DNA from: Promethearchaeota archaeon
GTDB taxonomy: Archaea; Asgardarchaeota; Lokiarchaeia; Sigyniarchaeales; SOKP01
Assembly: GCA_019058245.1 (NCBI GenBank)
Contig: JAHPZJ010000013.1
Span: forward strand, 9,166-73,165
DNA length: 64,000 nucleotides
Reading direction: 5' to 3'
Each line of letters starts with the position of its first letter. Positions within the stretch are counted from its first letter, which is position 1. The translations under genes and the position numbers were made by a program. Shown one piece after another: positions 25,614 through 47,233 of this stretch. Below the pieces are notes generated by a model. It saw only the letters and a list, made by a program, of their open reading frames with translations. It made no database searches and was not told where the DNA came from.

Positions 25614-26618
25614 TTGAATGTGTTGAAAATTTTATTAACAGGAGCATTTGGTAATGTTGGATTAAGTACTTTAAAAGAGATGCTTAAGAGAAATTATGAT
25701 ATTAGAGTTTTTGATATTAAAACTAGTAAAAATAAGCGAATCGCTTGGAAGTATAAAAAAAAAGTAGAAATTATTTGGGGAGATATTAGAAAAGAAAAAG
25801 ATGTTCGAAAGGCTGTTGAAGATATTGATGTTGTAATCCATATTGCTGCGATTATTCCACCCTTGGCCGATAAAAAGCCTAAATTAGCAGAAGCAGTAAA
25901 TGTTGGAGGAACTAAAAATATTATTACAGCAATGGAAAGCCAGTTAAAAAAGCAAAGGCTTATTTTTACATCTTCGGTGGCTGTTTATGGAGATCGTCTT
26001 GAAAATCCATTAATAACACCTGAAGATCCATTAAATCCAAATCATGATGATGAATATGCTAAGCAAAAAATCGAATGCGAAGAATTAATTAGAAATTCGA
26101 ATTTAGAGTGGGTGATATTTAGATTAACATATATCGTATCATTGAATAAACTACAAATGGATCCTTTAATGTTTGAAATGCCTCTTGATACTTGTATTGA
26201 AATTTGTGATACTAAAGATGTTGGTCTTGCCCTTACTAATGCTGTGGAAAACAAAGATATTTGGGGAAATATTTTACATATTGCTGGAGGAGAACGATGC
26301 CGAATTTCATATCGAGAATATCTTAAAGAAATGTTGGGAATCTTTGGTATCGGTTTTGAAGAATTACCTGAAGAAGCTTTCAGACGGGAAAGGGGATTTC
26401 ATTGTGGGTTTATGACAACCAAAAAAAGTCAAGAACTTTTGAATTATCAAAAACACACTCTTGATGATTACTTCAGTGCTGTAAGAAAAAAAGTAGCTAT
26501 TATACGATTTTTTAACATAGTGTTTAAACCAATTATGCAAAAATACTTACTTAATAAATCTCATTATTATAAGGATTATCTAAACAATTATTATCTTGAA
26601 ATTAAAAATAAAAATTAA
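25614..26618 (+). CDS. NAD-dependent epimerase/dehydratase (extended SDR)
   Basis: TGAFGNVG, HIAA, SSVAVYG, YAKQK. Confidence 0.9.
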   Translation: MNVLKILLTGAFGNVGLSTLKEMLKRNYDIRVFDIKTSKNKRIAWKYKKKVEIIWGDIRKEKDVRKAVEDIDVVIHIAAIIPPLADKKPKLAEAVNVGGTKNIITAMESQLKKQRLIFTSSVAVYGDRLENPLITPEDPLNPNHDDEYAKQKIECEELIRNSNLEWVIFRLTYIVSLNKLQMDPLMFEMPLDTCIEICDTKDVGLALTNAVENKDIWGNILHIAGGERCRISYREYLKEMLGIFGIGFEELPEEAFRRERGFHCGFMTTKKSQELLNYQKHTLDDYFSAVRKKVAIIRFFNIVFKPIMQKYLLNKSHYYKDYLNNYYLEIKNKN

Positions 26619-26987
26619 TGATATAAGCATTCTTTCAACTTTTTTACTTCTCTTCTTTTTTTATTAGAAAAATAAAATTGTTAAAATTGTAATTTCTTTT
26701 TTTGATCAAAAAACCTATACTAATTTTATATTTAAAAAATTAATTCGTCATTGATTATTGATTCAGTTAAAATAAATTAGTTTTAGTGACCATTTCATAT
26801 ATATTTACTTATCTTGATAATCAATAATATTAAAAGTATTGGAAACGTAAATAAAATTAACAGAAAACTTTTAAGTTTGATCATTATAAAAAGATCAATA
26901 TAAGAAATTAAAAATTTTCCAAGAAAGTTCTTAGAAATTTATTATTATACAATTATGTAAAATCTAGAGGTGGATGTGTAAAAATAG

Positions 26988-28931
26988 ATGAGTAATACTG
27001 AAAATCATCGGATTGGATACTATGCTTGTCAATGAGGTGTAAATATTAGAACGAAAGTAGATTGTGATGAATTAACCGAGTATGTGAAGAGTCTTGGAGA
27101 GGAAATTATAATATCAAAGAAAAGTCCATTTCTTTGAACTGATAATGCTCAAAATGAAATTATAGAAGATATTAAGGAAAAGAATTTAAATAGAATTGTA
27201 GCATCAGCTTGAACTCCACGCACCCATGAAGTAATATATAGAGGTACTATTGCAAAAACCAATTTAAATCCTTATTATTTTCAAATGGTAAATGTACGTG
27301 AACAATGTTCTTGGTGCACTGACAGTAAAGAAGAAGCAACAGAAAAGGCAAAAATTTTAGTAAAAAGCGGGATAGAAAGAGTTAAACGATTAGAATCTGT
27401 TCCAATAAAGACAGTTCCGGTTACAAAAGCTACTTTGGTTATCGGTGCTGGAATTGCTGGTATGAATGCCGCATTAGATCTTGCGAATCAAGGAATTAAG
27501 GTATATTTAGTTGATCAAAAAACTACAATAGGAGGGAGAATGTCGCAATTAGACAGAACTTTTCCGACTGATGACTGTGCAATATGAATTTGTGGACCTA
27601 AAATGTTAGAAGTTAATCGAAATGAAAATATTGAACTAATAACTTATAGTGAAGTAAAGAAAGTAGAGGGATACGTTGGAAACTATAAAGTAACTATTGA
27701 AAAGAAACCACGCTATACAACTGATGAATGTAATGGATGCGGAGCATGTGCCGAGGTCTGTCCAGTTTATATATCAAATTATTTCGATGAGCATCTGGGA
27801 GTGCGTAAAGCAATTGATATTCCATTTGGTCAAGCAGTACCATTTCTCTATGATATCAATAGAGACGCTTGTATTGAGTGTTTTTCATGTGTAGATGCCT
27901 GTGAATTAGATGCAATCGATTTTAGTCAAATTGCTAAAGAAATTAATGTCGAGGTTGGTACAATTATCATAGCAACTGGGTGGGATATATATGAACCCTT
28001 TGGAGAGTATGGATATGGAGAATTTGAAAATGTTATCACTCAAGTTCAATTAGAACGAATTCTCGCTCCAAATGGACCACTTGAAGGTAATGTCCATCGA
28101 ATTTCAGATAATAAAGAACCTAAAAATATAGTATTTATACAATGTGTAGGAAGTCGAGAAACTGAACGAACATATTGTAGTGGCGTGTGTTGCATGCTTG
28201 CTCTAAAAAATGGGCGATTATTACTTGAAGAATTTCCCGATGCAATCATAACAATTTGTTATATTGACATAAGAACTCCCGAAAAGGGTTTTGAAGAATA
28301 TTATGAGCGAGCTAAAGAAGCAGGAATTAGAATGATTCGTGGAAAAGTAGGTGAAATCTCCGAAGACCTGGAAACAAAAAATGTGAAAGTTCGAGTGTAT
28401 TCAACACTTACGGATAAGATTGTAAAAATTGATGCTGATTTAGTTGTTTTATCTTCAGCTGCACTCCCTTCAAAAGGTACTCAGCAAATAGTAGAAGTTT
28501 TAAATCTTGATACCAACGCCTATGGGTTCCTTACAGAATCCCATTTTGGATTATTACCACAAGAAACAAAATCAAAAGGTATTTTTATAGCAGGTTTTGC
28601 TCAAGGACCGAAAAATATTTCATATTCTGTATCTCAAGCCAGAGCTGCTGCTAGCAAAGTAGCTGAGTTAACCGCACCAGGTCAAATCGATATAGAACTT
28701 ATTACTGCTGAGGTTAATCCTGAATTTTGTATTTCATGTAGACGATGCGAAAAGGAATGCCCTAAAAGTGCAATTAAGATTGAAAAGGGGATTGGAGCAT
28801 TTATTGATGAAATAAATTGTGACGGATGCGGAATTTGTGCGTCATGTTGTCCTACTCAAGCTATTGACATCAGATATTATCGTGATTATCAAATATTTGC
28901 CGAAATTGATGGAATTTTAGGAGGCGATTAA
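26988..28931 (+). CDS. hdrA: Heterodisulfide reductase subunit A, selenoprotein with four Sec (647 aa)
   Basis: Single frame from ATG 26988 with TGA at 27033, 27135, 27210 and 27585 (CQU, FLU, SAUTPRTHE, DCAIU). These match CHC, YTC, ASCTPRTHE and DCAIC in the Cys paralogue at 33422. Confidence 0.93.
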
Positions 28932-28937
28932 TCAAAC

Positions 28938-29399
28938 ATGGATTATAAATATAATATAATTGTTTTTGCTTGTTTAAAGTGAGGATATAGCGCAGCTGAT
29001 TTAGCTGGGACTTCACGATTGAAATATACTCCAGCAGTAAAAATTATCAAAGTTAAATGTACTGGTAGGGTTGACGTAAAGCACATTCTTTACAGTATTA
29101 GAGCTGGTGCGGATGGTGTTATGATTGTAGGTTGACAACCTAATGAATGTCAATTTAAAAACGGAAACTTCACAGCCCAAAAACACGTAGACTTAGCCAA
29201 TAGAATCTTAGAATCTAGAGGTTTTAGTAATCAGAGAATAAATATGTATTGGTTAAGTGGGGGAGATGCTGGAAAATTTGTTAAATCAGTTGAAAATGCT
29301 TATGAAAGAGTAAGAAAAGTCGGACCCAGTCCATTAAACTTAGTACAAGAAGAACAAAAAGTGAAAGTAAAACAAGTTATAACTACTCCTGCAGAATGA
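28938..29399 (+). CDS. mvhD: MvhD/VhuD [2Fe-2S] subunit, selenoprotein with two Sec (153 aa); missed by the ORF track
   Basis: FACLKUGYSAADLAG (TGA 28980), KCTGRV, VGUQPNECQF (TGA 29133); compare CNWCSY and GCHIGDCHY in the Cys copies. Confidence 0.93.
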
Positions 29400-29452
29400 T
29401 TCTTGTAAGTAAATTGTAGTTATAAGAAGACGAACCCTGCGAGGGAAGGAGT
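29385..29452 (+). promoter_or_regulatory. Eukaryote/Loki-type SECIS element
   Basis: ACUCCU-GCAG-A-AUGA(29396-29399)-UUCUUGUAA, loop GUAAAUUGUAG, UUAUAAGAA-GA(29429-29430)-CGAACC-CUGC...AGGAGU. Confidence 0.88.
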
Positions 29453-29515
29453 TTTTAAAAATAGTATTCAATTTTAAATAAAACTTTTTAATATGTAATC
29501 CAAAAGGCTGTAAAT

Positions 29516-31011
29516 ATGGTTCAAATTTCAAAAAATCAAAATTTTAATGGAATTTCTTCCAAAAATTTAATGGATGCCACCTATAAGGCAATTGAAAACT
29601 TCCAAATTCGAGCTTTTTTTGAAGCAAAAGATGAAATTCTAAAAGCAGGTAAGATCAACGAAACTGAATTTTATGATATTCTTGATGCAATGATTGATAG
29701 TGAAACAGAGCGTAGATTAGTATGTGAAAGATTGCTTGGTGAAAAGCCATTATTTCTGGAAGAAATTACAAGAGTGGTACAAGATTTTCCACCAGAAAAT
29801 GTAATTCGCGATATTATTTATCTGAAAGAACAAGGTTATATTGAGGAAATTGTTGAAACAAAGACTAAAAAAGTTATTAAAAAAATAAAGGGAGAAGAAA
29901 AAGAAGTTGAAGAAACAGAATTTTTTTACAGATATCACGTTAGAGCCATACCTGATGATTTTATTGAATATTTTCTTGAACCTGTTTCAGTTGTATTTGA
30001 TTCCAAAGTATGCTGTCAATGCGGTTGGTGTTCTTCAATTTGTCCTGTAAATGCTATTACAGTGACAGCAGATACTTTAGAAATCGATGATGAAATTTGT
30101 ATGAAATGTGGATTATGCTATTCAGTGTGCCCAAGATCATTTTCTATTGAACAAGCAGGCAAAAATATAAAGAAACTTGATAAATCTTTGAATTTTTCTG
30201 AAAAAATTAATGGTTATGTTAATACTTATTCAGCCACTACTACTAAGGATGAAATTAAAAAAGTACGACAAGATGGAGGGATTGTCACTTCTATACTTGA
30301 ATATTTACTTAAAAAAAAAAAGTTGATGCTATTATAGCAGTGAAACATTCAGAAGAACTATGGAAACCAGAACCTGTTATAATAGAAGATCTAAAAGATT
30401 TATATAAAACAAGTGGTACTAAATATGCCAATGCCTCAACTTTGAAGATTATAGATAAAACAAAAAAATATGAAAATGTTGCAGTCGTAGGGGTTCCTTG
30501 TATGATGAACGCTTTAGAGAAGGGTACTTGGTTTCCAAGTGGACAGATTCCTTTCAAAAATATAAAATATAGAATAGGCCTTTTTTGTATGGAGTCTTTT
30601 CCTTATCAAGGTGTCCTCAACTTAATTAGTGAACAATTTAAAACAGATTTTAAAAAAGTTACAAAAATGGACATAAGTGGTGGTAAATTCATTATTTACT
30701 TAGATTCGGGCGAAGATTTAAAGGTACCCTTGAATGATGTCAAATCTTATGCACGTCATAACTGTCATTATTGCGAGGATTTAACTGCTGATTATGCAGA
30801 TATCTCTATAGGATCAATTGGGTCACCCAGTGGCTGGTCTACAGTGATTACGAGAAATAAAAAAGGTGAGAAAATCTATCAAGAAGCAATAATGGCAGGA
30901 TTAATAGAATCTAAAAGTTTAAAGGATGTTAAACCTGGGCAACCCTTATTGGAAAGGATTGCTGGTATCAAAAGAAAAAATTGTAAACCTATCAACTTGA
31001 AAAAGGAGTAA
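29516..31011 (+). CDS. FrhB-like F420-binding oxidoreductase with N-terminal extension and 2x[4Fe-4S]; split by a -1 frameshift in an A11 run (30311-30321)
   Basis: QDGGIVTSILEYLL in the first frame continues as VDAIIAVKH...VGVPC...IGLFCM in the -1 frame. Confidence 0.85.
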
Positions 31012-32144: not shown

Positions 32145-33422
32145 GTGAATCCTATAACAGAGATAAAAGAATCTAAAGATATAAAACAAAAAGAAAATGA
32201 AAGAGATTTATATTTAAGAAAAATATTTGATCCAGATTTAACAAATTTATTAAAGAAATGCTATCAATGTGCCCGTTGTTCAGGTGTATGCCAAATTAGT
32301 AAAGTACAAAAATTTACACCTAGTAGAATTATTCAAATGATATTAGAAGGCTTTGAAGATGAGATAATTAATAGTCGAGTCTTATGGGATTGTTTAATGT
32401 GCAATAGTTGTCTGCAACATTGTCCTAAAGATATTAATTTTGCTGACATTGTCAGAATTGCGAGATATAAGATGAAACTAAAAGATATTCAAAATCCTAA
32501 TCGCTCTATTGCTCATAAAGGTATCTATTCTTTAATGTCTGAAATGATGGCTCAAGAGAATTTAACAGTTGAGAGACCTCTAGATTGGATTCCAAATGGA
32601 TGTAATACTTCAGATAAAGGAAATATATTATATTATGTAGGATGCCTCCCTTTTTTTAATTATGAATTTCAAGATTCTCTATCAATAGCAAAAAGCACTC
32701 TGAAGATTATTTGTCAATTGGAAAAAGAGCCTATAGTAGTTCTTAAAGATGAGGTATGTTGTGGACATGATTTATATTGGGGTCAAGCAAAATTCGAAAG
32801 TTTTATTGAATTAGCTAAGAAAAATGTAAACCGATTTGAAAATGCAGGAATCACAAAAATTATTACTGCCTGTGCTGAATGTTATAGAACCTTTAAAATT
32901 GATTATCCAAAGCTATTTGAGGATTTCGATGTGAAATTTGAAGTTAACCATATTATTGAGTATATCTATGATAAATGGAAGCAAGGTAGAGTTCAATTTG
33001 ATAATCCAAATGAATCTAATGATATTATTCCCTTTACTTATCATGATCCTTGTAGATTAAGTAGATTCTTACCTAAACATAATAAAATAAATGAGAAAGT
33101 CCGAGAAATTTTTAGATATTTGAAGAAAATAGGATTTAATTTTAAAGAAATGGAGCATAATAAGGAAAATTCTTATTGTTGTGGAGTTAATTCTTGGATG
33201 AATTGTAATGAAAAATCTAAAGCTTTACGGTATAAACGTCTTTTAGAAGCTAAAGCTGTTGGAACAAAAATGATTACTTCATGTCCAAAATGTCGAATGC
33301 ACTTGACATGTCTAAGAAATGATTATGATGATTTTTCTTCTATTGATATTTTGGACTTTTCGGAGTTTTTGGTTGATATTATAAAAGTAATAGAACCTAA
33401 TCAAAGTATTGAGGAGAAATAA
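32145..33422 (+). CDS. HdrD/GlpC-like Fe-S oxidoreductase (2x[4Fe-4S] plus two CCG domains)
   Basis: CYQCARCSGVC, CLMCNSCLQHC, two CCG motifs, YHDPC, SCPKC. Confidence 0.88.
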   Translation: MNPITEIKESKDIKQKENERDLYLRKIFDPDLTNLLKKCYQCARCSGVCQISKVQKFTPSRIIQMILEGFEDEIINSRVLWDCLMCNSCLQHCPKDINFADIVRIARYKMKLKDIQNPNRSIAHKGIYSLMSEMMAQENLTVERPLDWIPNGCNTSDKGNILYYVGCLPFFNYEFQDSLSIAKSTLKIICQLEKEPIVVLKDEVCCGHDLYWGQAKFESFIELAKKNVNRFENAGITKIITACAECYRTFKIDYPKLFEDFDVKFEVNHIIEYIYDKWKQGRVQFDNPNESNDIIPFTYHDPCRLSRFLPKHNKINEKVREIFRYLKKIGFNFKEMEHNKENSYCCGVNSWMNCNEKSKALRYKRLLEAKAVGTKMITSCPKCRMHLTCLRNDYDDFSSIDILDFSEFLVDIIKVIEPNQSIEEK

Positions 33423-36400
33423 TGGCGAAAGTCGGAGCTGTCCTTGTTATTGGTGGAGGAATTGCTGGCATTCAGGCTTCAATAGACCTAGCGGATTCAG
33501 GCTATAAAGTATACCTTGCTGAATCTACAACCAGTATTGGGGGAGTTATGTCTCAATTAGATAAAACTTTTCCAACTAATGACTGTGCAATATGTATTCT
33601 TGCCCCTAAATTAGTACAAACTGGGCGACATGAAAATATCGAAATTCTAATCAATTCATCAATTGAAAAAATCGAAGGTGCTCCAGGTCATTTTAAAGTA
33701 GATTTAACTCAAAGAACACTTCGTTTGGACCAAGAAAAATGTACAGGGTGCGGTTTATGTGCTCAACAATGTCCCATAGAAGCTATTGATCTCTTTAATG
33801 AGAAACTTTCTAATATTGCAGCAATTTCTGTAAAATTTCCTCAAGCAGTTCCGCTAGTTTTCTCAATTAATAAAGATAAATGTATAGGATGTGGTATTTG
33901 CAAAGGAATATGTAAAGCAAAAGCGATAGATTATGATCTTCAAGATAAATTAATAACTCTAGATGTGGGAGCTGTAGTACTCGCAATTGGATTTGACGAA
34001 TATGATCCTACTCCTTTGACTGAATTAGGTTACGGTAAACATTTAAATGTGATTACTAGTATTGAATTTGAACGTATCCTAAGTGCCAGTGGGCCACATT
34101 CCGGTTTAATACTTCGCCCTTCTGATGGAACTATCCCTAAAAAAATTGCCTTTCTACATTGTGTTGGCTCAAGAGATAGAAAACATAGAAAAGATTATTG
34201 TTCTTCTGTATGTTGTATGTATACTACCAAAGAAGCAGTAATAGCAAAAGAACATATGAATATTATTGAACCAACAATTTTTACGATGGATATCAGAGCA
34301 TACGGTAAAGATTTTGACAAATATATTGACCGAGCAAAGGATGAGTATGGTGTAAGATATATTAGACGTAGAATTTCTTCCATTAAAGAGATTCCTGACT
34401 CTAAAGATTTAATAGTTTGTTATGAAACAAAAAACGGTAAAATAATTAAAGAAATTTTTAATTTAGTCGTGCTCTCTGTAGGGATGGAACCTAATCAAAA
34501 AGCAAATGAATTAGCACAAAAATTAGATATACAGTTAAATGAATATGGATTTTGTAAAACTTGTACTTTTAGCCCAGTAGAAACGTCAAGATCGGGAATT
34601 TATGTGTGCGGATCTTTCGCAACTCCTAAAGATATTCCAGAAACTGTGATTGAAGCTAGTGCTGCTGCTGGGTGCGTCAATATTCTTTTATCAGAAGCAA
34701 GAAATAAATTGGTTACTAAAAAAGAACTACCAGAAGAGTTAGATGTAAGTGATCAACCACCACGTATAGGTGTATTTATATGTCATTGTGGTATAAATAT
34801 TGGTGGGGTTGTCGATGTTCCTAATGTAGTTGAATATGTTAAAACCTTACCCAATGTTGTCTATGCTGAACATAATTTATATACATGTTCAGCAGATACC
34901 CAAACCAATATCAAAGAAAAAATTAAAAAAAATAATCTTAATAGAGTCATCGTTGCATCATGCACTCCAAGAACACATGAACCGTTATTTCAAGCAACAA
35001 TCCGGGAGGTTGGTTTAAATAAGTATCTTTTTGAAATGGTTAATATTCGAGATCAATGTTCATGGGTCCATATGCATGAACCTGAAAAAGCAACAGCAAA
35101 ATCAAAAGACCTATTACGTATGTCAGTAGCAAAGGCTAGTCAATTAATCCCATTACAAGAACAGGAAATCTCTGTAATAAATAAAGGTTTAGTAATTGGA
35201 GGAGGTGTTTCAGGAATGACAGCAGCATTAAATCTCGCCTCTCAAGGTTATGAAATCTTTTTAGTTGAAAAGGAAGATTCTTTGGGGGGAATTGCTAAAA
35301 ATATATATAGAACCCTTGAAAATGATGACGTTCAAGAATATCTTAAAATCCTAATCAAAAATATAGAAAGTAATCAACTTATTCATGTATTTAAGAATGC
35401 TCAAATTAATGGAATTTCAGGATATATTGGTAATTTTTCTACAAACATAAGCTATGGAAATAATGGTAAAATTATCGATCTTGAACATGGAATAATAATT
35501 GTGGCAACTGGAGCAAAAGAATATCAACCTAAGGAATATCATTTCGGAAAAGATCAAAGAATTATAACCCAAACTCAATTTGAAAAAGATCTTTTTACTT
35601 CAGATAAAATAAAAGGATTGAAATCAATAGTTATGATTCAATGCGTTGGATCTAGAAATGATGATTTCCCATATTGTAGTCGAGTTTGCTGTTCAGAAGC
35701 TATAAAGAACGCTTTAAAAGCGAAAGAAATTAATCCTAACATAGAAATTATCATTCTATATCGCGATATCAGAACATATGGTTTTAAAGAAAAATATTAT
35801 AACTTTGCTCGAGATAAAAAGGTTATTTTCATTAGATATGAGGAAGTTGAACCTCCAGAATTAAAAATTAAAAATAAAGAATTAAAAATTATAGTAACTA
35901 ATCCAGATTTGGGAAAGCTTGAAATAAATCCGGATTTAATTGTATTAAGTACAGGTCTCGTAGCACCTATAAAAGAAAATGAAGAATTAGCAAAAATGTT
36001 AAAAGTTCCACTTAATGAGGATAAATTTTTTTTGGAAGCTCATGTTAAATTGAGACCAATTGATTTTGCAACAGATGGTATATACTTATGTGGATGTGCA
36101 CATTCACCAAAAGATATCCGAGAATCAATTGCACAATCCAATGGAGCTGCTGCTCAGGCAGTCAAAATTCTAAGTTCTGAAAAGCTTGTAACATCTGGGC
36201 TTGTAGCTGTCGTGATAGAAGAAAATTGTATTGGTTGTGGAAGTTGTGTTGAAGTCTGTCAATTTAATGCGATAGAATTAATAGAGAAAGAAAGAGCGTT
36301 CGAAGATTTTACAATGCCTATAATGAAATCTTATGTTAATCCTGCGCTTTGTAAGGGATGTGGTACTTGTGGTGCTCAATGTCCTAATTCGACAATAGTA

Positions 36401-36463
36401 ATAAAACATTTTGGTTTTGAGCAAATTCATGCTATGATTTCTGCACTTTTAATTCAAAGTTAA
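33422..36463 (+). CDS. hdrA: Large HdrA-like flavoprotein with two FAD modules (Cys type)
   Basis: Two GGGxxG motifs, LDKTFPTNDC, RIGVFICHCG, ASCTPRTHE, ferredoxin motifs. Confidence 0.88.
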   Translation: MAKVGAVLVIGGGIAGIQASIDLADSGYKVYLAESTTSIGGVMSQLDKTFPTNDCAICILAPKLVQTGRHENIEILINSSIEKIEGAPGHFKVDLTQRTLRLDQEKCTGCGLCAQQCPIEAIDLFNEKLSNIAAISVKFPQAVPLVFSINKDKCIGCGICKGICKAKAIDYDLQDKLITLDVGAVVLAIGFDEYDPTPLTELGYGKHLNVITSIEFERILSASGPHSGLILRPSDGTIPKKIAFLHCVGSRDRKHRKDYCSSVCCMYTTKEAVIAKEHMNIIEPTIFTMDIRAYGKDFDKYIDRAKDEYGVRYIRRRISSIKEIPDSKDLIVCYETKNGKIIKEIFNLVVLSVGMEPNQKANELAQKLDIQLNEYGFCKTCTFSPVETSRSGIYVCGSFATPKDIPETVIEASAAAGCVNILLSEARNKLVTKKELPEELDVSDQPPRIGVFICHCGINIGGVVDVPNVVEYVKTLPNVVYAEHNLYTCSADTQTNIKEKIKKNNLNRVIVASCTPRTHEPLFQATIREVGLNKYLFEMVNIRDQCSWVHMHEPEKATAKSKDLLRMSVAKASQLIPLQEQEISVINKGLVIGGGVSGMTAALNLASQGYEIFLVEKEDSLGGIAKNIYRTLENDDVQEYLKILIKNIESNQLIHVFKNAQINGISGYIGNFSTNISYGNNGKIIDLEHGIIIVATGAKEYQPKEYHFGKDQRIITQTQFEKDLFTSDKIKGLKSIVMIQCVGSRNDDFPYCSRVCCSEAIKNALKAKEINPNIEIIILYRDIRTYGFKEKYYNFARDKKVIFIRYEEVEPPELKIKNKELKIIVTNPDLGKLEINPDLIVLSTGLVAPIKENEELAKMLKVPLNEDKFFLEAHVKLRPIDFATDGIYLCGCAHSPKDIRESIAQSNGAAAQAVKILSSEKLVTSGLVAVVIEENCIGCGSCVEVCQFNAIELIEKERAFEDFTMPIMKSYVNPALCKGCGTCGAQCPNSTIVIKHFGFEQIHAMISALLIQS

Positions 36464-36481
36464 ATTATATGGTGTTAATAT

Positions 36482-36913
36482 ATGTCTAAGTCAAAAAAAA
36501 AAGTAGATAAAAAGAATTTTCATCCTAATATTTTATGTTTTTGTTGTAACTGGTGCAGCTATGCCGGAGCTGATTTAGCTGGTGTATCTCGTTTTCAATA
36601 TCCTTCCACAATTAGAATTTTAAGGGTAATGTGCTCAGGTAGAGTAGATCCTGCTTTCATTTTGGAAGCTTTTAAAGATGGCATTGATGGAGTCATTGTA
36701 ACAGGATGTCACATAGGAGATTGTCATTATTTGAAAGGAAATGAATTTGCGAGGGATAGATTTGAACGCTTTAAAGAGGTGCTAAAAATATTTAATCTTG
36801 ATAAAAGATTTAAACTTGAATGGGTAAGTGCTTCTGAAGGGAAACGATTCGCTGAAGTTATAACAGAATTTACTAATAAAATAAAGAATTTAGGACCATT
36901 GCAAGCTTTATAA
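36482..36913 (+). CDS. mvhD: MvhD [2Fe-2S] subunit (Cys type)
   Basis: [37 protein letters not shown]. Confidence 0.95.
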   Translation: MSKSKKKVDKKNFHPNILCFCCNWCSYAGADLAGVSRFQYPSTIRILRVMCSGRVDPAFILEAFKDGIDGVIVTGCHIGDCHYLKGNEFARDRFERFKEVLKIFNLDKRFKLEWVSASEGKRFAEVITEFTNKIKNLGPLQAL

Positions 36914-37049
36914 AATTATTTAATTTTATTCATTTTTATTTATATGTATGGAAAGATAAATTCAGTGTCTAATTTCAATGAAAATTTAATGAATAATAAC
37001 GAATTTGTTCAGTAGATTTTACAGTGTCTTGAAAATTCTTTTTTTTATA

Positions 37050-37601
37050 TTAATAATATTCTGGTATCGGCCGAAGTAGGGTTATTGGAACAATAATACT
37101 AAAAATCAATCCTATTGTATTTATAATAATTCCAAAGATTCCGATTATACTTCCAGCTTTTTCCATATCATTATAAGGCTCGAGTTTTACTGCTTTTGAG
37201 TCACTCATTCTAGAATAAATACCCAAGATTAATCCTCCCGCACGCAAAAATAAAATAACAAAAAATGCAACTAAACGCAATCTAAGATTATAATAAGAAT
37301 CAATATACATATACATGTAAGGAAAACCAAAATTAATACCCATATAAAATGTTGCTATTCCTATACTAATAGAAACTAAGGCGAACCAAAAACTCATATA
37401 AGAATATTTTCCCGGAACCCCCTTTTGTAAAGTAGTTTGTGGTTTAACAGGAACATAATATATTTGAGGTGATGGTTCATTTCGAAATCTCTCACTTTTG
37501 GACTCAGACGTTTTAGAAGCAGTTACAATTTCAGCTCCACAATTATGACAGAATTTTTGATTTGGCGCAATTAAATCTTTACCACATTCAGGACAAAACA
37601 T
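37050..37601 (-). CDS. Zinc-ribbon 3-TM membrane protein (tandem copy)
   Basis: MFCPECG...FCHNCG plus TM helices. Confidence 0.8.
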   Translation of the reverse strand: MFCPECGKDLIAPNQKFCHNCGAEIVTASKTSESKSERFRNEPSPQIYYVPVKPQTTLQKGVPGKYSYMSFWFALVSISIGIATFYMGINFGFPYMYMYIDSYYNLRLRLVAFFVILFLRAGGLILGIYSRMSDSKAVKLEPYNDMEKAGSIIGIFGIIINTIGLIFSIIVPITLLRPIPEYY

Positions 37602-37855
37602 AAAATGTTACCTAATTTAATCTACTATTTTATAATTCACTATGGATTACTTAATAATATTTCTTAGCATACCTTTTAAACTTTCTCCATTATTGATAGA
37701 CTATTTGGAAAATCTCACTAGTTTTAAATTGATATCATTAAAGCATTTTATGCTGATTGAAAAAGATAATTTCTAATCTGATTTTTTTACAATTTCCTTT
37801 AAAAAAAAATAAATTTGTTCATTAGAATTCAACAAAAAATTAATTTTACTACCCT

Positions 37856-38383
37856 TTAATAATAATATTCTGATAATGGTAGATGTAGGGAGATTAGAAC
37901 AATAGTTGAAATAACAATTCCAATTGCATTTATAACAATGGCAATGACACTAGAAACACTTCCAGATTTTTCAAGATCATTATGAGGCTCGAGTTTTAAA
38001 GCTTTAAAGCTACTAATTTTAGAATAAATACCTAAGATTAATCCTACCACACGTAATAACAAGATAATAGAATTTAAAACTATAGACCCTCTAATATTAT
38101 AATATACATTAAAAAAGTATCTAAAAAAATACGTTCCTACTCCTATTACGAAAGAAACAAATGCAAACCAAAAGCATATATAAGAATATTTCCCAGGGGG
38201 ACCCTTTTGTAAAGTAGTTTGTGGTTTAACAGGAACATAACATATTTGAGGTGATGGTTCATTTTGAAATCTCTCACTTTTGGACTCAGATATTTTAGAA
38301 GCAGCTATAACTTCAGTTCCACAATTATGACAGAATTTTTGATTTGGCGCAATTAAATCTATACCACATTCAGGACAAAACAT
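37856..38383 (-). CDS. Zinc-ribbon 3-TM membrane protein (tandem copy)
   Basis: Near-identical N-terminus to 37050-37601. Confidence 0.8.
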   Translation of the reverse strand: MFCPECGIDLIAPNQKFCHNCGTEVIAASKISESKSERFQNEPSPQICYVPVKPQTTLQKGPPGKYSYICFWFAFVSFVIGVGTYFFRYFFNVYYNIRGSIVLNSIILLLRVVGLILGIYSKISSFKALKLEPHNDLEKSGSVSSVIAIVINAIGIVISTIVLISLHLPLSEYYY

Positions 38384-39019
38384 AAAATGTTACCTAATTT
38401 AATCTACTATTTTATAATTCACTATGGATTTGTTAATAATATTTCTTGGCATACCTTTTAAACTTTCTCCATTATTGATAAACCATTTGGAAAATAACAC
38501 TAGTTTGATTTGAAATAATAAGAAATGATTTTATAAGAAAAAATAATGATAAAAATATTTTTTTTTGGATGTATAGTTTTTTCATTATCTATAAAAATTA
38601 CTTTTTTCTTGATCAATTTCATAATTCTTAAAGGAATTTCTGTAGGGAATGGATCATGGAATCTTGTCTTATTATCATAAAGAGTCAAAATGAAGGTAAT
38701 CAGCAATATAGGAAAGAAAAAACGCCGATATCAGGCATAATCAGAGAGAAACTTATCGATCATGATCTCGAAGTAAGGAAATTTTGACCTAAACAGACAA
38801 AATGTTCGTAAAGGTACAGAAATGGAGGATGATCTGATTGAATAGGAATAGTCTGACTCGAAAAAAGCTTGGGATTGATCATCTTCAAAGCAAAAAGTGT
38901 AGGATTCTGATCATTTTTTATAAAAATATTTATATAATTACATTTCTTTTATTCTTATTCAACGAAAGAAAAATGTGGAAAACTAACATTTATCAAAAAA
39001 AAATAAAAAGTGTTAAATA

Positions 39020-42000
39020 ATGGAAGGATCAGTCTTAGTTATTGGTGGTGGGATAGCAGGGATACAATGTTCATTAGATTTAACTGAATTAGGGTTTAAA
39101 GTTTATTTAGTAGAAAAAACACCTTCGATTGGAGGTAGAATGGCTCAGCTTGATAAAACTTTTCCTACAAATGATTGTAGTTTATGTATTCTTGCTCCTA
39201 AAATGGTAGAAGTATTTAGAAATCCAAATATTGAATTAATGACTTATCATGAAGTTCAAAAAGTCTCAGGAAAATCAGGAAATTTCGCAGTTACCATTAT
39301 AAAAAAACCTCGATATATTGATGAGACAAAATGTAAAGGTTGTGGTGACTGTGCTGGTAGATGTCCGAAAATTGAAGCTCCTAATATTTTTGATATGAAT
39401 TTAGGTAAAAGAAAGTCTATTTATATTCCTTTTCCTCAAGCAGTTCCTCCAGTTTATTTAATAGATCCCGAATTATGCTTAAAACTTACTAAAGGTGTAT
39501 GTGGGGTTTGTGAGAAAGTATGTAAGGCAGAAGCAATAGATTATGATCAACAACCACAAGAAATAAAATTGAAAGTTGGTGCTGTCGTTGTTGCTACAGG
39601 TTATGACATGTTAGGAGCAGACTTAACCTCAAGATGGGGTTATAATTATAAAAATGTTGTAACAGCTCTAGAATATGAACGAATGCTATCTGCTTCTGGA
39701 CCTTTTGGAGGTCATTTATTACGTCCAAGTGATGAGAAGGAACCAAATGTAATTGCGTTTATACAATGTGCCGGTTCGAGAGATATACGGGAGGGAATTC
39801 CATATTGTTCTTCTGTTTGTTGCATGTATACTGCTAAAGAAGCTATTATTACTAAAGAGCACTCTGAAAATTCAAAGTGTTTTGTTTTTAGACACGATGT
39901 TAGAGCCTATGGTAAAAACTTTTATGAATTTACTCAGAGAGCTCAAGAAGAATATGGAGTAAAATATTTCCAAACTAAAATTAGTAGAATATTAGAAGAT
40001 CCAGAGACAAATGATTTAGTAATTCATTATGAAGATCTAAAAAGGGGTAAATTTAAGGATTTTAAAGCAAATTTAGTAGTATTAGCTACACCTTTAGTTC
40101 CTTCAGCAGGTACTAAGGAATTAGCAAAAATTTTAGGTATCGAATTGGATGATTATAATTTCTTTAAAGAAAAATCATATTATACTAAATCTTTATCCTC
40201 TAAGGAAGGTATTTTTCTAGCTGGATTTTGTCAAGGTCCAATGGATATACCAGAAACAGTTGCTGATGCTAGTGGGGTAGCGGCACAAGTAGCAACTTTA
40301 CTTAATTCCTACAAATTTACAGAAACAAAAGAAAAGATTATCGAGATACCAGAAAAAATTGTCAAAGAAACGGATACACCTAGAATTGGAGTTCTTATTT
40401 GTCATTGTGGTATTAATATTGGAAAGTATATTGATATTCCTCAAGTTATAGAACATATAAAATTATTACCTAATGTAATTTTTTGCGAAGATAACTTATA
40501 CTCTTGTAGTTCAGATTCCCAAAAACGAATCAAAGAAGTGATAAGCGAATATAATTTAAATAGATTTATTGTAGCATCTTGTACTCCAAGAACGCATGAA
40601 TCTTTATTCCAAGAGACATGTCAAGAAGCGGGTTTAAATAAATATTTATTTGATATGGTGAATATCCGTGATCAATGTTCATGGGTACATATGACGGAAA
40701 AAGAGCTTGCCACGGAAAAAGCAATTGATTTAATAAGAATGGGAATTGCTAAATCAAGATTATTAAAATCACAAGTAGAAAAAAAATTGAAAATAACTCA
40801 AACTGCATTGGTAATCGGTGGGGGAATATCTGGGATGACTGCCGCTTTAAATATTGCACATCAAGGCTTTACTGTTTATCTTATAGAAAAAGAGAAGTAC
40901 TTGGGTGGAAATTTAAGATACTTAAATATGCTATATCCTACTCAAGAGGATGCTTCAGTCTTATTAAATGAGACCATAGTTAAGGTTGAAAAGAATAAAA
41001 GCATTCAACTCTTTTTAAATTCCAAATTAGATGATATTAACGGATATCTTGGTAATTATAATGTTTATATTATCGATTCAGATAATCAGATCCATGAGTT
41101 AAAAATTGGTACAATTATTGTTGCTACTGGTGGACAAGAATTAAAACCTAATGAATTTTTTAACTATACATATACAAACCACAATGTAATTACACAACTA
41201 CAACTAGAGCAGAGACTAAAGGATGAAGATCAATCATGGTTACGTAAACTAAATCATATTACTACTCTATTATGTGTAAATGCTAGGCAAGAAGAGGGGA
41301 TAACTTATTGTTCAAACATATGTTGTGAAAGTGCTATAAAGAATATTAATCTGTTAAAAGAATTAAAGCAAGACCTAAAATTAATAGTTCTCTATAGGGA
41401 TCTTCAGATGGCAAAGAAAGAATTTGAAAGATATTATCGCGAACGAAGAAAAGATGCTATTTTTTTGAGATATGATTTAGATAATCCCCCTTCAATTAAA
41501 GAGATAAATGGTGGAACAAGTAAATTTGAAATTGAAGTTTTTGACACCAATTTGCAAGATAACCTCAAATTTAATACAGATTTAATAGTACTTTCGACCC
41601 CTATGGTTCCAGCAGACAATTTAGATGAGCTAGCTAAGATGCTCAAGGTACCCCTAGATAAAAATGGTTTTTTTCTCGAGGCTCACGTCAAATTAAGACC
41701 ATTAGATTTTGCGACTGACGGAATCTTCTTGTGTGGGTGTGCCCATTGGCCAAAAAATATACAAGATTCAATATCACAAGCAAATGGCGCAGCAGGAAGA
41801 GCGTGTAGATTTTTAAGTGCTGAAGAAATAACCACATCTGGATTAGTAGCAGAAGTAGATCAAGAAAGGTGTATAGGATGTGGAACATGTGAAGAAGCAT
41901 GCTCGTATAACGCAATAGAAATCACAGAAATCATAAAAGAATTCGAAGAGGTAAGTTTACCTGTAAAAAAATTTTCTGTAAATGCTGGTTTATGTAAAGG

Positions 42001-42100
42001 ATGTGGAACTTGTGCGGTGAATTGTCCCTCTGGAGCCATTTCTATTAAACATTATGATTTTGAACAAATTAGTGCTATGATTAAGACATTGGCAATGTAA
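39020..42100 (+). CDS. hdrA: Large HdrA-like flavoprotein with two FAD modules (Cys type)
   Basis: Same architecture as 33422-36463. Confidence 0.88.
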   Translation: MEGSVLVIGGGIAGIQCSLDLTELGFKVYLVEKTPSIGGRMAQLDKTFPTNDCSLCILAPKMVEVFRNPNIELMTYHEVQKVSGKSGNFAVTIIKKPRYIDETKCKGCGDCAGRCPKIEAPNIFDMNLGKRKSIYIPFPQAVPPVYLIDPELCLKLTKGVCGVCEKVCKAEAIDYDQQPQEIKLKVGAVVVATGYDMLGADLTSRWGYNYKNVVTALEYERMLSASGPFGGHLLRPSDEKEPNVIAFIQCAGSRDIREGIPYCSSVCCMYTAKEAIITKEHSENSKCFVFRHDVRAYGKNFYEFTQRAQEEYGVKYFQTKISRILEDPETNDLVIHYEDLKRGKFKDFKANLVVLATPLVPSAGTKELAKILGIELDDYNFFKEKSYYTKSLSSKEGIFLAGFCQGPMDIPETVADASGVAAQVATLLNSYKFTETKEKIIEIPEKIVKETDTPRIGVLICHCGINIGKYIDIPQVIEHIKLLPNVIFCEDNLYSCSSDSQKRIKEVISEYNLNRFIVASCTPRTHESLFQETCQEAGLNKYLFDMVNIRDQCSWVHMTEKELATEKAIDLIRMGIAKSRLLKSQVEKKLKITQTALVIGGGISGMTAALNIAHQGFTVYLIEKEKYLGGNLRYLNMLYPTQEDASVLLNETIVKVEKNKSIQLFLNSKLDDINGYLGNYNVYIIDSDNQIHELKIGTIIVATGGQELKPNEFFNYTYTNHNVITQLQLEQRLKDEDQSWLRKLNHITTLLCVNARQEEGITYCSNICCESAIKNINLLKELKQDLKLIVLYRDLQMAKKEFERYYRERRKDAIFLRYDLDNPPSIKEINGGTSKFEIEVFDTNLQDNLKFNTDLIVLSTPMVPADNLDELAKMLKVPLDKNGFFLEAHVKLRPLDFATDGIFLCGCAHWPKNIQDSISQANGAAGRACRFLSAEEITTSGLVAEVDQERCIGCGTCEEACSYNAIEITEIIKEFEEVSLPVKKFSVNAGLCKGCGTCAVNCPSGAISIKHYDFEQISAMIKTLAM

Positions 42101-42251
42101 TTTTGAATTAATAGTAATCAATGATTATCATAATCTTAATTTCTTATTTGACATTTGAGTTATGAAATCTAATCAGAAAAAATAAATTATTTCCTTTTTT
42201 TTCCTATTCATCATTAGTTCAAATTAATTAAAGTTCCATTAATCAAAAAAA

Positions 42252-43532
42252 GTGAATATTATTACTGAAACTTCAAAAGTAGATGATTCGAAAGAACTTA
42301 AAGATAATATCGAACCTTTTTTAGAAAAAATTTATGAACCTGATATAAGAAAATTATTATTAAGATGTTATCAGTGTGTTCGTTGTAGTGGTGTTTGTCA
42401 GCTTAGTAAGGTTCAGACATTTGAACCAAGTAGAATAATTCAAATGATATTAGAGGGTTTTGAAAATAAGATCATTGAAAGTGGTGTTTTGTGGGATTGT
42501 TTAACATGTAACGCTTGTCTACAGAACTGTCCTGAGGGAATAAATTTTGCAGACATAGTGAGAATGGCAAAATACAAAATGCGAGAATCTTATAATCAAA
42601 ATCCAGAGGATATTATTGCTCATAAGGGTGTATATACTACAATATCAGAAATAATGAGTGAATCTCATATAAATCCAGATAGATCTATGGAATGGGTTCC
42701 TAAGGACTGTGAGATTTCAAGACAAGGAAATATTATGTATTATGTAGGATGCTTACCATATTTTAATTTTGAGTTTGAAAATTCAGATTCTATAGCGCAA
42801 AGCACATTAAAAATATTATATCAGATTGAAAAAGAACCAATAGTAGTTCTTCAAGATGAAATATGCTGTGGACATGATCTATATTGGGGTCAAGGTAAAC
42901 TTAAAGAATTTATTAATTTAGCAAGGAGAAATATAAAAAAAATCGAAGAAACTGGAGTTAAAACAATCATAACTGCCTGTGCTGAATGTTATAGAACATT
43001 AAAAGTTGATTATCCAAAGATTTTTGAAGATTTTGATAAAAAATTTGCTATAAAACATTTAATTGAGTATATTTATGAAAATTGGAAAGCTAATAAAATT
43101 GAATTTAAGAATCCCTCTCAAAAGGAAGAGCCTATCCCATTTACTTATCATGATCCATGTCGACTAAGTCGTTTTTTACCTAAAGATAGTAGTATAATAG
43201 ATAATGTCCGTGAAATTTTCTCTCATTTAAAAAATCTAGGATATAAGTTCAATGAAATGCTACATAATAAAACTGATGCTTTATGTTGTGGTGTGAGTTC
43301 TTGGATGAATTGTAATGATCGTTCAAAAGCTTTACGATACAAAAGGCTATTAGAAGCTAAAGATGCCGGAGATATTATGGTCACATCATGTCCCAAATGC
43401 AAAATGCATTTATCATGTTTACAAAAAGATTATGAGGATATATCCTCTATCGAAATTGTAGATTTTTCTGAATTTTTAGTCAATTTAATATCTATTGTTG
43501 ATTCTACTCAAGAAAAGGAGGTAGAGCAATAA
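42252..43532 (+). CDS. HdrD/GlpC-like Fe-S oxidoreductase
   Basis: Paralogue of 32145-33422. Confidence 0.88.
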   Translation: MNIITETSKVDDSKELKDNIEPFLEKIYEPDIRKLLLRCYQCVRCSGVCQLSKVQTFEPSRIIQMILEGFENKIIESGVLWDCLTCNACLQNCPEGINFADIVRMAKYKMRESYNQNPEDIIAHKGVYTTISEIMSESHINPDRSMEWVPKDCEISRQGNIMYYVGCLPYFNFEFENSDSIAQSTLKILYQIEKEPIVVLQDEICCGHDLYWGQGKLKEFINLARRNIKKIEETGVKTIITACAECYRTLKVDYPKIFEDFDKKFAIKHLIEYIYENWKANKIEFKNPSQKEEPIPFTYHDPCRLSRFLPKDSSIIDNVREIFSHLKNLGYKFNEMLHNKTDALCCGVSSWMNCNDRSKALRYKRLLEAKDAGDIMVTSCPKCKMHLSCLQKDYEDISSIEIVDFSEFLVNLISIVDSTQEKEVEQ

Positions 43533-46500: not shown

Positions 46501-46639
46501 TGTATGTAAAGGATGTGGAACATGTGCTGCAACATGTAAGGTTGGTGCTATAATGGTTAAACATTATGATTTTGATCAAATTTCCACAATGATTGATTCA
46601 TATTTATTAGAAAAGGAGGAAATTAAAAACGGTCTATAG
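43532..46639 (+). CDS. hdrA: Large HdrA-like flavoprotein with two FAD modules (Cys type)
   Basis: Close paralogue of 39020-42100. Confidence 0.88.
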   Translation: MEGAVLVIGGGIAGIQISLDLTELGFKVYLVEKSPSIGGRMAQLDKTFPTLDCSLCILAPKMVEVFRNPNVELMTYHEVLNIDGEPGDFTAKILKKPRYIDESKCKGCGECANKCPKILAPNLFEMNIGKRKSVYIPFPQAVPPIYLIDSEMCLYLKKGVCQVCKKVCPADAIDFEQKAEEFEIKVGAVVVATGFEMPADKLSSRWGYRFENVVSALEYERILCASGPFGGHVTRLSDEKEPEVIAFIQCAGSRDLHENVPFCSSVCCTYTAKQAIITQEHSENSECYVFRHDIRAYGKNFYEFTQRAQNEYGVKYFQSKISKIEEDSETKDLIIHYEDLKSGEFKDFRANLVVLASPLVPSKGVQELSNSLGIELDKYNFFQEKSYFDKLKSSRNGVYLCGFCQGPMDIPETVADASGVAAQIADLLSSVKYTQMKEKTVDVPEKEVKITDEPRIGVMVCHCGINIANYVDVPKVVEYIKELPNVVVCESNLYSCSSDSQIRIKELIAEHNLNRFIVASCTPRTHESLFQETCQEAGLNKYLFELVNIRDQCSWVHMTEKDAATEKAIDLIRMHVAKSKLLKPQREDKIDITHTALVIGGGVSGMTAALNIANQGFKTFLVEKEDELGGNLKFLNVLYPVHKNALELLNELKEKINKNNNIQVYLNAGLSNIKGYVGNYDVVITDSNNEIHDVKIGTIIVATGGKELKPTGLFGYNDKSKNVMTQLELEQKLKNKDTKWLEGINRVTIILCVNARQKEGITYCSNICCATALKNVRILKELKPELEIVVIYRDLQMAKKEFEEYYRERRKDAIFLRYDLENLPEVKLKKGTSEKYQIKVYDTNLKDNIEFESDLVILSTPMVPAENLKELAMMLKVPLDKNGFFLEAHVKLRPLDFATDGIFLCGCAQWPKNIQDSISQANGAAGRASRFLSADKITTSGLVAEVSEEKCIGCGECEDVCPYKAITLIEIEKEFEDITIKVKKSNINAAVCKGCGTCAATCKVGAIMVKHYDFDQISTMIDSYLLEKEEIKNGL

Positions 46640-46648
46640 GTGATATTC

Positions 46649-47083
46649 ATGTCAAAATCTAAAAATCAAACAAAAAGCAAAGGATTTGAGCCAAATATTT
46701 TGGTTTTTTGCTGCAATTGGTGTAGTTATGCCGGAGCTGATTTAGCAGGTGTTTCAAGATTTCAATATCCTCCAAATATAAGAATTATACGAGTAATGTG
46801 CTCTGGAAGAGTTGATCCCTCCTTCGTCTTAAAAGCATTAAAAAATGGTGCTGATGGTGTTCTTATAAGTGGATGTCATATAGGTGATTGCCATTATATT
46901 ACTGGGAATGAATATACTCGAGAGAGATTTGAACGTTTACATAATATTTTAATCAAACAACTGGGAATAGATCCAAAACGAGTACGATTAGAATGGGTAA
47001 GCGCCTCTGAAGGAAAGAGATTTGCTGAGGTAATTACAGAATTTACAAATCAAATAAAAGAATTGGGTCCCTTCAAAAGATAA
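46649..47083 (+). CDS. mvhD: MvhD [2Fe-2S] subunit (Cys type)
   Basis: [23 protein letters not shown]; GGTGA 5 nt before ATG 46649. Confidence 0.95.
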
Positions 47084-47233
47084 AATCTTTAAATTATCAT
47101 TTAAAAACCTGCTTTTTATCCTGAATTCTTAATGTTTCTTAAAAAATTCATTTAACTAAAATTGATATAATTAATCAAAATCAGTAATTTTCGCATTAAA
47201 ATTTATAAATAATAAATAGACTAGGATAATATT

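Follow-up and report, generated by a model that had tools for sequence, protein, structure and literature searches.

How could six in-frame UGA codons, spread over two adjacent genes, all be decoded as selenocysteine (Sec) when only one SECIS element accompanies them and lies behind the second gene? This question is raised by a heterodisulfide reductase locus within the window, that is, the whole 64,000-nucleotide stretch of archaeal DNA that was analyzed, in which hdrA is followed on the same strand by mvhD (also known as vhuD). The original prediction was that a single 3' SECIS serves six UGAs in the two genes across a gap of only 6 nt, and translation with TGA read as Sec (U) bears this out, with four UGAs in hdrA, two in mvhD and a spacer at 28932-28937. 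The coordinates of all features are given in Table 1.

Table 1. Features of the hdrA-mvhD locus, numbered from the first nucleotide of the window
Feature	Position	Strand	Remarks
Conserved upstream block	26940-26973	+	TATA-like TTATTATACAATTATGT, then SD-like GAGGTGG (26967-26973); alignment of 18 orthologous upstream regions
hdrA (heterodisulfide reductase subunit A)	26988-28931	+	647 codons, TAA stop; translated with TGA=U
hdrA codons 7-11	27006-27020	+	CAT CGG ATT GGA TAC; core of constraint, 13-27 nt 5' of first UGA
hdrA Sec codons	27033-35 (U16), 27135-37 (U50), 27210-12 (U75), 27585-87 (U200)	+	in-frame TGA
SECIS-like motif in hdrA	28332-28366	+	ATGA-8 bp with 1 mismatch-13 nt-GA; encodes M-I-R-G-K-V-G-E-I-S-E-D
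Cistron junction	28920-28940	+	GGAGG, TAA stop (28929-31), spacer TCAAAC, mvhD ATG
mvhD/vhuD (FlpD family)	28938-29399	+	153 codons; translated with TGA=U
mvhD Sec codons	28980-82 (U15), 29133-35 (U66)	+	in-frame TGA
mvhD TGA stop	29397-29399	+	inside SECIS AUGA core
Loki-type SECIS	29385-29452	+	folded as three-way junction
SECIS helix I	29385-90 with 29447-52	+	
SECIS AUGA core	29396-29399	+	contains mvhD stop
SECIS helix II	29400-08 with 29420-28	+	9 bp, TTCTTGTAA / TTATAAGAA, 0 mismatches
SECIS apical loop	29409-19	+	11 nt, GUAAAUUGUAG
SECIS GA	29429-30	+	
SECIS side hairpin	29435-45	+	CCCU-GCG-AGGG
Fer4 + FrhB/FdhB-like gene	29516-31011	+	context only; without TGA codon

Pfam assigns HdrA-type Fer4/FAD domains to the first gene product and FlpD/MvhD to the second. 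The in-frame UGAs of both genes lie at conserved Cys positions: all six align with Cys residues of the Cys-type paralogs encoded in the same genome, and 9sfi, the top PDB match listed among solved HdrA structures, carries Cys at positions 16, 50 and 75 and an X at position 200. In 39 of 56 full-length orthologous pairs the same six UGAs are present, with five in 12 pairs and seven in three. The 647-codon frame of hdrA is kept in 56 species at 74-97% identity, with occasional TGA/TGT exchange at codon 50.

The two genes are closely packed. hdrA lies directly upstream of mvhD, with a spacer of about 4-6 nt in those orthologs in which the mvhD start is clearly placed, and the GGAGG that constitutes the mvhD Shine-Dalgarno sequence sits within the last hdrA codons, both in the window and in orthologs. 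The hdrA stop codon is TAA or TAG throughout (17/17 same-genus orthologs, 24/24 family pairs and 59/59 pairs of the two other Sec-type hdrA-mvhD orthogroups), and TGA makes up 14% of the stops of long ORFs genome-wide; such avoidance in all orthogroups is sensible only if UGAs on the hdrA mRNA are prone to recoding. The conserved block upstream of hdrA probably holds the operon's promoter and 5' leader, and a T5 run (29452-56) follows right after the SECIS. Together with the short spacer and the Shine-Dalgarno sequence within hdrA, this run hints indirectly at one mRNA that would carry both genes and the SECIS. Further sense-strand T5 runs occur inside the operon at 27881, 28582 and 28963, where such runs could in principle terminate archaeal transcription. 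A short upstream ORF (ATG-TGT-AAA-AAT-AGA-TGA) overlapping the hdrA start was dropped, as it is not conserved. The downstream Fer4 and FrhB/FdhB-like gene is frameshifted at an A11 run (30311-30322) in this assembly and forms a single ORF in 17/17 orthologs.

The element behind mvhD carries the sequence features of the lokiSECIS and of type I eSECIS-like structures: a core of ATGA-9 bp-11 nt-9 bp-GA (29396-29430) with a stem free of mismatches, adenines in the apical loop and a final loop G. It overlaps the mvhD stop codon, and its hairpin has a predicted energy of -5.7 kcal/mol, within the published limit of below -5. The loop has its AAA at positions 3-5, not 1-5, and ends in AG; most orthologs have AAAAA. 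Across 24 aligned elements the AUGA and GA flanks are invariant or nearly so. The three helices covary, with 92.8% of cells paired, 17/19 pairs changed on both sides and 0/500 shuffles scoring as high. The core lies 1811-2363 nt downstream of the four UGAs of hdrA and 263-416 nt downstream of the two of mvhD.

We searched the whole window, with filters off, using a covariance model of the Loki SECIS core (R1), and also used an extended model (R2). R1 gave one significant match (55.6 bits, E 1e-8), all others having E >= 0.85; R2 likewise gave one match, and the published type I eSECIS criteria yielded one match versus 0.06 in shuffled sequences. These scans located the sole SECIS 3' of mvhD, at the predicted 2363 nt from the first UGA, and found no separate element inside or 5' of hdrA; such an element would have spoken against sharing. 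Over complete related loci, R1 found exactly one match per locus in 63/63, always 3' of mvhD, with no internal match at E <= 1 across 369 kb of sequence. A strict pattern, applied to the two other Sec-type hdrA-mvhD orthogroups, found a single SECIS in 53/59 loci and no internal match in any. Both models are specific to the type I form. As their training set came from this SECIS family, a SECIS of very different shape would be missed, a gap that is partly covered by the scan for synonymous constraint described below.

Searches for other element types were also carried out. No Rfam SECIS family reached the gathering score in the window, nor E <= 10 in 26400-29700, so that the element, which appears to work like a eukaryotic SECIS, is yet not filed as an Rfam SECIS member. 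The methanogen GAA_A pattern had no match in the window when the GC clamp was included, and eight without the clamp versus 8.15 expected by chance. A Methanococcus-type GAA_A element was rejected on the absence of a GC-clamped bulge and basal stem: the side hairpin reads GAA-CCCU-GCG-AGGG-A without a basal stem, and its GAA is UAA in most orthologs. Near the hdrA end, a GUGA...AA hairpin (28882-28914) has a perfect 7-bp stem, but its GUGA needs a CGT Arg codon, found in 11/57 orthologs, and the generic scan behind it returned 14 matches versus 9.8 +/- 3.5 in shuffles. In the downstream FrhB-like gene, a pattern of the form ATGA-10 bp-13 nt-AA recurs (about 29673-29744); it was set aside as coding conservation that mimics a SECIS.

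An unbiased scan for synonymous constraint over 57 hdrA and 60 mvhD orthologs gave no sign of a hidden element, either in the hdrA body or close to UGA 50, 75 or 200. Local recoding signals at single UGAs were rejected, since synonymous sites are free around these three codons and around both mvhD UGAs. The strongest constraint of the operon covers hdrA codons 1-16 (z down to -5.5). We discarded its reading as a recoding aid for UGA16, because the two other Sec-type orthogroups lack the constraint while also having a UGA at this position. The region of codons 7-11 has no consistent local fold, and in a scan for long-range duplexes with the 5' constrained region no partner stood out; a site that recurs near CDS nt 831 falls inside the range seen for other windows and shows no constraint of its own.

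Could hdrA nevertheless be served by an element of its own? A hairpin at 28332-28366 might act on its four UGAs and leave the 3' element to mvhD only. Over 10 + 6 nt its flanks are identical to those of the true SECIS core (AGAAUGAUUC...GAAGAC), at the same 23-nt spacing, its AUGA...GA recurs in 14/18 same-genus orthologs, and in two of the orthologs (L035 and L037) the hairpin falls below the published -5 kcal/mol limit, with -3.9 in a third (L038). In the window, however, the hairpin fails this energy limit, and with R1 it scores 12.9 bits (E 2.5), rank 5 among the noise matches. It also has no G at the end of the loop, no helix I and no side hairpin. Four of the 17 same-genus orthologs carry Leu for Met and no AUGA at this site but keep all four UGAs, while more distant orthologs have either lost the AUGA or kept only 1-5 of the 8 pairs (range across orthologs, 1-8 of 8). 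The motif is likewise missing from the genome's two other Sec-type hdrA genes, which share the UGA at the early codon, and its synonymous sites vary freely (z -0.3). A noise-level score, absence from orthologs that keep the UGAs and the lack of synonymous constraint mark the motif as a by-product of the coding sequence, and we consider an auxiliary SECIS at this position highly improbable.

Nor do we favor a decoding of the hdrA UGAs without any SECIS in cis, whether by a trans-acting SECIS RNA or by default competition of Sec-tRNA at UGA, in which case the mvhD element would not be mechanistically shared. Action in trans would be compatible with the sequence. Decoding of this kind sits poorly, however, with the 14% of long ORFs that end in TGA as an ordinary stop and with the fact that hdrA never ends in TGA in any orthogroup. 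Moreover, all other selenoprotein genes seen in the genome keep their own SECIS directly 3'; this holds even for two small selenoprotein genes lying only ~240 nt apart, which suggests that an element in cis is needed and that hdrA-mvhD is exceptional in sharing one. Decoding without a cis element is therefore unlikely, if somewhat less so than an internal one. Separate transcription or early termination within hdrA, which would leave this lineage with an hdrA that is truncated or without function as a selenoprotein gene, could appeal to oligo-T termination in archaea at the T5 runs mentioned above, but the run at 28963 is not conserved and the 6-nt spacer has no room for an intergenic promoter. 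The conservation of the full hdrA frame, and TGAs that are fixed at Cys-ligand positions apart from the exchange at codon 50, are hard to reconcile with such a gene, and we give this account very little credence.

We judge with good confidence that the best explanation is one 3' Loki-type SECIS shared by hdrA and mvhD, as originally predicted; it agrees with every sequence-level test that was run. According to this model, hdrA and mvhD would form a tightly coupled two-gene unit on one mRNA that ends just 3' of the SECIS. The latter would fold as a eukaryote-like K-turn (AUGA, 9-bp stem, 11-nt A-containing loop, GA) within a three-way junction and recruit, directly or via an adaptor, a Sec-specific elongation factor with Sec-tRNA(Sec). 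This factor might then be delivered to ribosomes paused at any UGA of the mRNA, at any distance and in either cistron, as for eukaryotic 3'-UTR SECIS elements. The hdrA stop cannot be recoded since it is UAA, and the mvhD stop lies in the AUGA core and would be reachable only by melting the SECIS, so that termination should win there. SepSecS and an EFSec-like GTPase, the latter at C14:77365-78255, are encoded in the genome. Counting against the model, neither ARAGORN nor Rfam RF01852 detected a tRNA-Sec in the assembly, which is 76% complete, and a lokiarchaeal SECIS was non-functional in Methanococcus maripaludis (PMC11881835).

The shared-SECIS arrangement is already known. In terms almost word for word those used here, Mariotti et al. 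(2016, PMC4989117) describe for Lokiarchaeota a single lokiSECIS common to HdrA-VhuD on a 'polycistronic mRNA', with "up to six UGA codons" spread across some 2 kb, and the arrangement was later extended across Asgard archaea with a type I eSECIS-like structure (Huang et al. 2024, PMC11227280). Our locus resembles these tandems in gene pair, order, strand and very short spacer, in a multi-Sec HdrA whose Sec residues occupy conserved Cys positions, the canonical one near 200 among them, in the two Sec of VhuD, in the sole AUGA / 9-bp stem / 11-nt loop / GA element 3' of vhuD, in the UAA/UAG stop of hdrA, in the number and range of UGAs and in a SECIS that may overlap coding sequence. It differs from the usual lokiSECIS in an apical loop that begins GUAAA and not AAAAA. 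The vhuD stop is here the UGA of the AUGA core, an overlap that PMC4989117 describes for VhuU.1. Some relatives have seven UGAs, versus the published up to six, and helix I and the side hairpin of the three-way junction are absent from the main texts of PMC4989117 and PMC11227280, insofar as these were available.

With eukaryotic 3'-UTR SECIS elements, including those of SELENOP, the element shares an AUGA...GA K-turn-type core, an A-rich loop, its 3' position, a presumed kilobase-range action and more than one UGA per mRNA; its upper stem is shorter, and the Rfam SECIS models do not match it. The likeness to SELENOP drawn in the original prediction is a loose one, because the SELENOP mRNA carries one reading frame and a pair of SECIS elements (PMC4989117), whereas here the UGAs are in two ORFs of a putatively bicistronic mRNA. 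The vhuD element of Methanococcales and Methanopyrus has in common with ours the hdrA-vhuD synteny, two Sec in VhuD, the 3' location and a main stem preceded by AUGA and followed by GAC. Unlike the SECIS of these methanogens, our element has no GAA_A bulge with GC clamps and basal stem, and their HdrA has a single Sec versus four here.

We know of no SBP2 homologue here. In all Loki-family elements examined, the side hairpin and the closing helix are conserved and covary, giving a three-way junction that would set the SECIS apart from the simple hairpin of the published models. We tentatively raise the possibility, doubtful as it is, that the third arm docks the factor replacing SBP2 and so lets up to seven UGAs be recoded across a cistron boundary and a distance of more than 2.3 kb.

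The idea of a shared element is therefore not new, and the point that it represents an extreme case was made in 2016 and is still a matter of bioinformatics only. The window provides a clean, well-conserved instance of it, together with negative controls. If true, the recoding of six or seven UGAs in two ORFs by one 3' element would be the most extreme among the known cases of Sec insertion at long range and at multiple sites.

The six in-frame UGAs in the adjacent genes hdrA and mvhD (vhuD), with one SECIS after mvhD, were confirmed in the window (contig C13, 9166-73165), which belongs to an assembly of 3.09 Mb with 29% GC and 76% completeness; its nearest relatives are MAGs labelled Promethearchaeota/Promethearchaeia, such as Loki_b32. 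From the coordinates of both frames, the two genes are 6 nt apart, as originally predicted. Pfam searches returned the Fer4 and FAD-binding domains that make up the HdrA set, along with a FlpD (MvhD) domain, and the top PDB matches for the hdrA product were HdrA subunits (E 1e-198). Many Cys-type paralogs in the same genome carry Cys at all six TGA positions, and a solved HdrA aligned to the hdrA product has Cys at 16, 50 and 75 and X at 200. Two more Sec-type hdrA-mvhD pairs, with 2 + 2 TGAs each, are located on contigs C28 and C17.

Features of the hdrA-mvhD operon and its 3' element
Feature	Position	Remarks
hdrA	26988-28931 (+)	647 codons with TGA=Sec; TGAs at codons 16, 50, 75 and 200; TAA stop
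mvhD/vhuD	28938-29399 (+)	TGAs at codons 15 and 66; final TGA 29397-99
Fer4 + FrhB/FdhB-like gene, 3' of mvhD	29516-31011	frameshift at A11 homopolymer, 30311-30322
SECIS closing helix (helix I)	29385-90 with 29447-52	5' strand within mvhD codons; RNAalifold
Small side hairpin	29435-45	RNAalifold
Constrained region	hdrA codons 1-16	z to -5.5, strongest in operon
Constrained region	hdrA codons 629-646, just 5' of mvhD start	z to -3.5; codon bias and SD account for part of it
Constrained region	mvhD codons 134-150	z to -3.2; includes SECIS helix I strand

Three more hdrA-like/mvhD clusters, all Cys-type, lie at 33400-47100, with their HdrA domains split and reordered (pieces matching residues 148-560, 4-240 and 320-644, in that order). 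In two orthologous loci, L094 and L098 (=L037), HdrA has a 13-residue insertion with a TAG or TAA stop near residue 102, which may be a sequencing error or mark a broken copy. Since the Fer4 + FrhB/FdhB-like gene is a single uninterrupted frame in 17/17 orthologs, its frameshift probably reflects a recent mutation or a mistake in the assembly.

A strict pattern search placed the SECIS core at 29396-29430, with the sequence ATGA / TTCTTGTAA / GTAAATTGTAG / TTATAAGAA / GA and zero stem mismatches. Its shape is identical to that of the published lokiSECIS (PMC4989117): AUGA and GA flank a 9-bp stem whose 11-nt loop has AG as its last two nucleotides. The mvhD stop sits within the AUGA, a T5 run directly follows the element, and the SECIS is kept in 17 same-genus orthologs. 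The AUGA lies 2363 nt 3' of the first UGA (27033), the figure reported earlier.

The original prediction had found no SECIS between or before the two genes, and all searches, as well as the related loci, bear this out. In the covariance-model scan that had been proposed as a check, a model of the core built from 24 elements and run unfiltered over the entire window in both orientations gave a single match (55.6 bits, E 1e-8), all remaining matches having E >= 0.85; an extended model of the three-way junction likewise matched once in the window. Applied to 26388-29800, the Huang et al. 2024 rules for type I elements, among them the -5 kcal/mol limit, gave 1 match vs 0.06 in shuffles. When a GC clamp was required, the archaeal GAA_A pattern had 0 matches; dropping the clamp left a number of matches at chance level. 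A scan indifferent to shape, which asked only for [AG]UGA, a closing stem of 7 bp and [GA]A around any interior, gave 14 matches vs 9.8 +/- 3.5 expected, and no Rfam SECIS family matched. A set of 67 additional loci (369 kb) taken from public genomes contained 63 complete ones, and 63/63 of these had exactly one core-model match, always at the mvhD 3' end; no other match reached E <= 1. With the strict pattern, 26 of 30 and 27 of 29 loci in the two remaining Sec-type orthogroups had one element 3' of mvhD, and 0 elements were inside hdrA.

A separate SECIS inside hdrA would undermine sharing, and one look-alike exists at 28332-28366 (ATGA-TTCGTGGA-(13 nt)-TCTCCGAA-GA, coding for R-M-I-R-G-K-V-G-E-I-S-E-D), which has AGAAUGAUUC...GAAGAC in common with the true SECIS. 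It does not act like a functional RNA. The core model ranked it fifth within the noise, at 12.9 bits (E 2.5); 4/17 same-genus orthologs lost the AUGA, because Leu replaces Met, with all four UGAs kept; and other genera often lack the AUGA or retain just 1-5/8 pairs. Third codon positions needed for pairing vary freely, over 57 orthologs synonymous diversity there is ordinary (z -0.3), and the motif is absent from paralogous Sec-type hdrA genes. The look-alike passed the published energy rule in loci L035 and L037 and narrowly missed it in L038, so that this rule alone is permissive.

One 3' SECIS shared by both cistrons is thus supported as the best model. In family members whose mvhD start can be placed clearly, the spacer measures ~4-6 nt; the mvhD GGAGG lies within the last hdrA codons, and a conserved TATA-like block and an SD-like GAGGTGG precede hdrA. 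An inverted repeat, TTGATC-N11-GATCAA (26876-26899, ~100 nt 5' of hdrA), seemingly present in about half of the same-genus orthologs in an alignment read by eye, may be a regulator binding site. The hdrA stop is TAA or TAG in all pairs (17/17 same-genus, 24/24 family, 59/59 in the other two orthogroups), TGA being the stop of 14% of long ORFs in the genome; this bias is consistent with the model, though not a strong statistic because the loci are related. Elsewhere in the genome, two small selenoprotein genes ~240 nt apart each have their own SECIS, so sharing seems to be peculiar to hdrA and mvhD as a coupled pair. The genome encodes SepSecS (370 bits) and an EFSec-like GTPase, and searches of the incomplete (76%) assembly detected no tRNA-Sec. 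Three orthologous operons carry seven UGAs and one SECIS, with an extra hdrA TGA at ferredoxin-type Cys614 (locus L106) or Cys301 (L107, L131), one UGA beyond the 'up to six' of Mariotti et al. 2016 (PMC4989117).

Selenoprotein loci besides hdrA-mvhD were also noted. At C27:41630-42430 (L050 130-930), adjacent small membrane-protein genes (83 + 71 aa) have one UGA (contexts xxSUGx / xxAUGx) and their own lokiSECIS each. Two paralogous genes at C10:57900-60500 (L048) encode a UU (Sec-Sec) dipeptide (...DSGCUUEK..., ...VHADUUADV...), again with a lokiSECIS each.

Across 57 hdrA and 60 mvhD orthologs, synonymous-site diversity per window of 10 codons revealed constraint in only three regions (see table), with no signal around UGA 50, 75, 200 or either mvhD UGA. 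In the 5' island, which ends just 5' of the first UGA, hdrA codons 7-11 (CAT CGG ATT GGA TAC, 27006-27020) are nearly invariant in the 57 orthologs, and rare codons are kept (CGG in 47/54 Arg codons, TAC in 46/47 Tyr codons). No such constraint is seen in the two other Sec-type hdrA orthogroups, whose early UGA is at the same codon; recoding of the first UGA therefore does not generally require the island.

RNAalifold on 21 elements, unaided, folded the SECIS into a three-way junction of closing helix, SECIS stem and side hairpin, the latter a conserved CC...GG, at times GG...CC, placed after GA-C (29385-29452 and loci L031-L083). When 41 elements (eight genera) were realigned to a model of the junction, 92.8% of cells were paired (slid controls 45-56%), figures tilted towards the structure by the fitting itself. 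Two-sided changes occurred at 17/19 pairs, values matched by 0/500 shuffles, and covariation was present in all three helices across the eight genera. The independent RNAalifold prediction, together with the wholly different helix I sequences of paralogous elements, argues that the fold is real.

A comparison with published Loki hdrA-vhuD loci, also proposed earlier, yielded the same arrangement: Mariotti et al. 2016 (PMC4989117) reported the sole lokiSECIS 3' of VhuD. Experimental proof is contained neither in that study nor in Huang et al. 2024 (PMC11227280) or a 2026 review, and a Loki SECIS did not function in M. maripaludis (PMC11881835). The main text of the 2016 paper does not use "lower stem", "hairpin" or "three-way" in this sense, neither it nor the main text of the 2024 paper mentions a three-way fold of the Loki SECIS, and a literature search returned no paper combining SECIS, Asgard and three-way junction. 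The arrangement is hence already known rather than new, and the finding, matching published accounts, is a correct rediscovery; the seven-UGA operons and the 5' constraint island go slightly beyond these accounts, as does the three-way junction with respect to the main-text descriptions.
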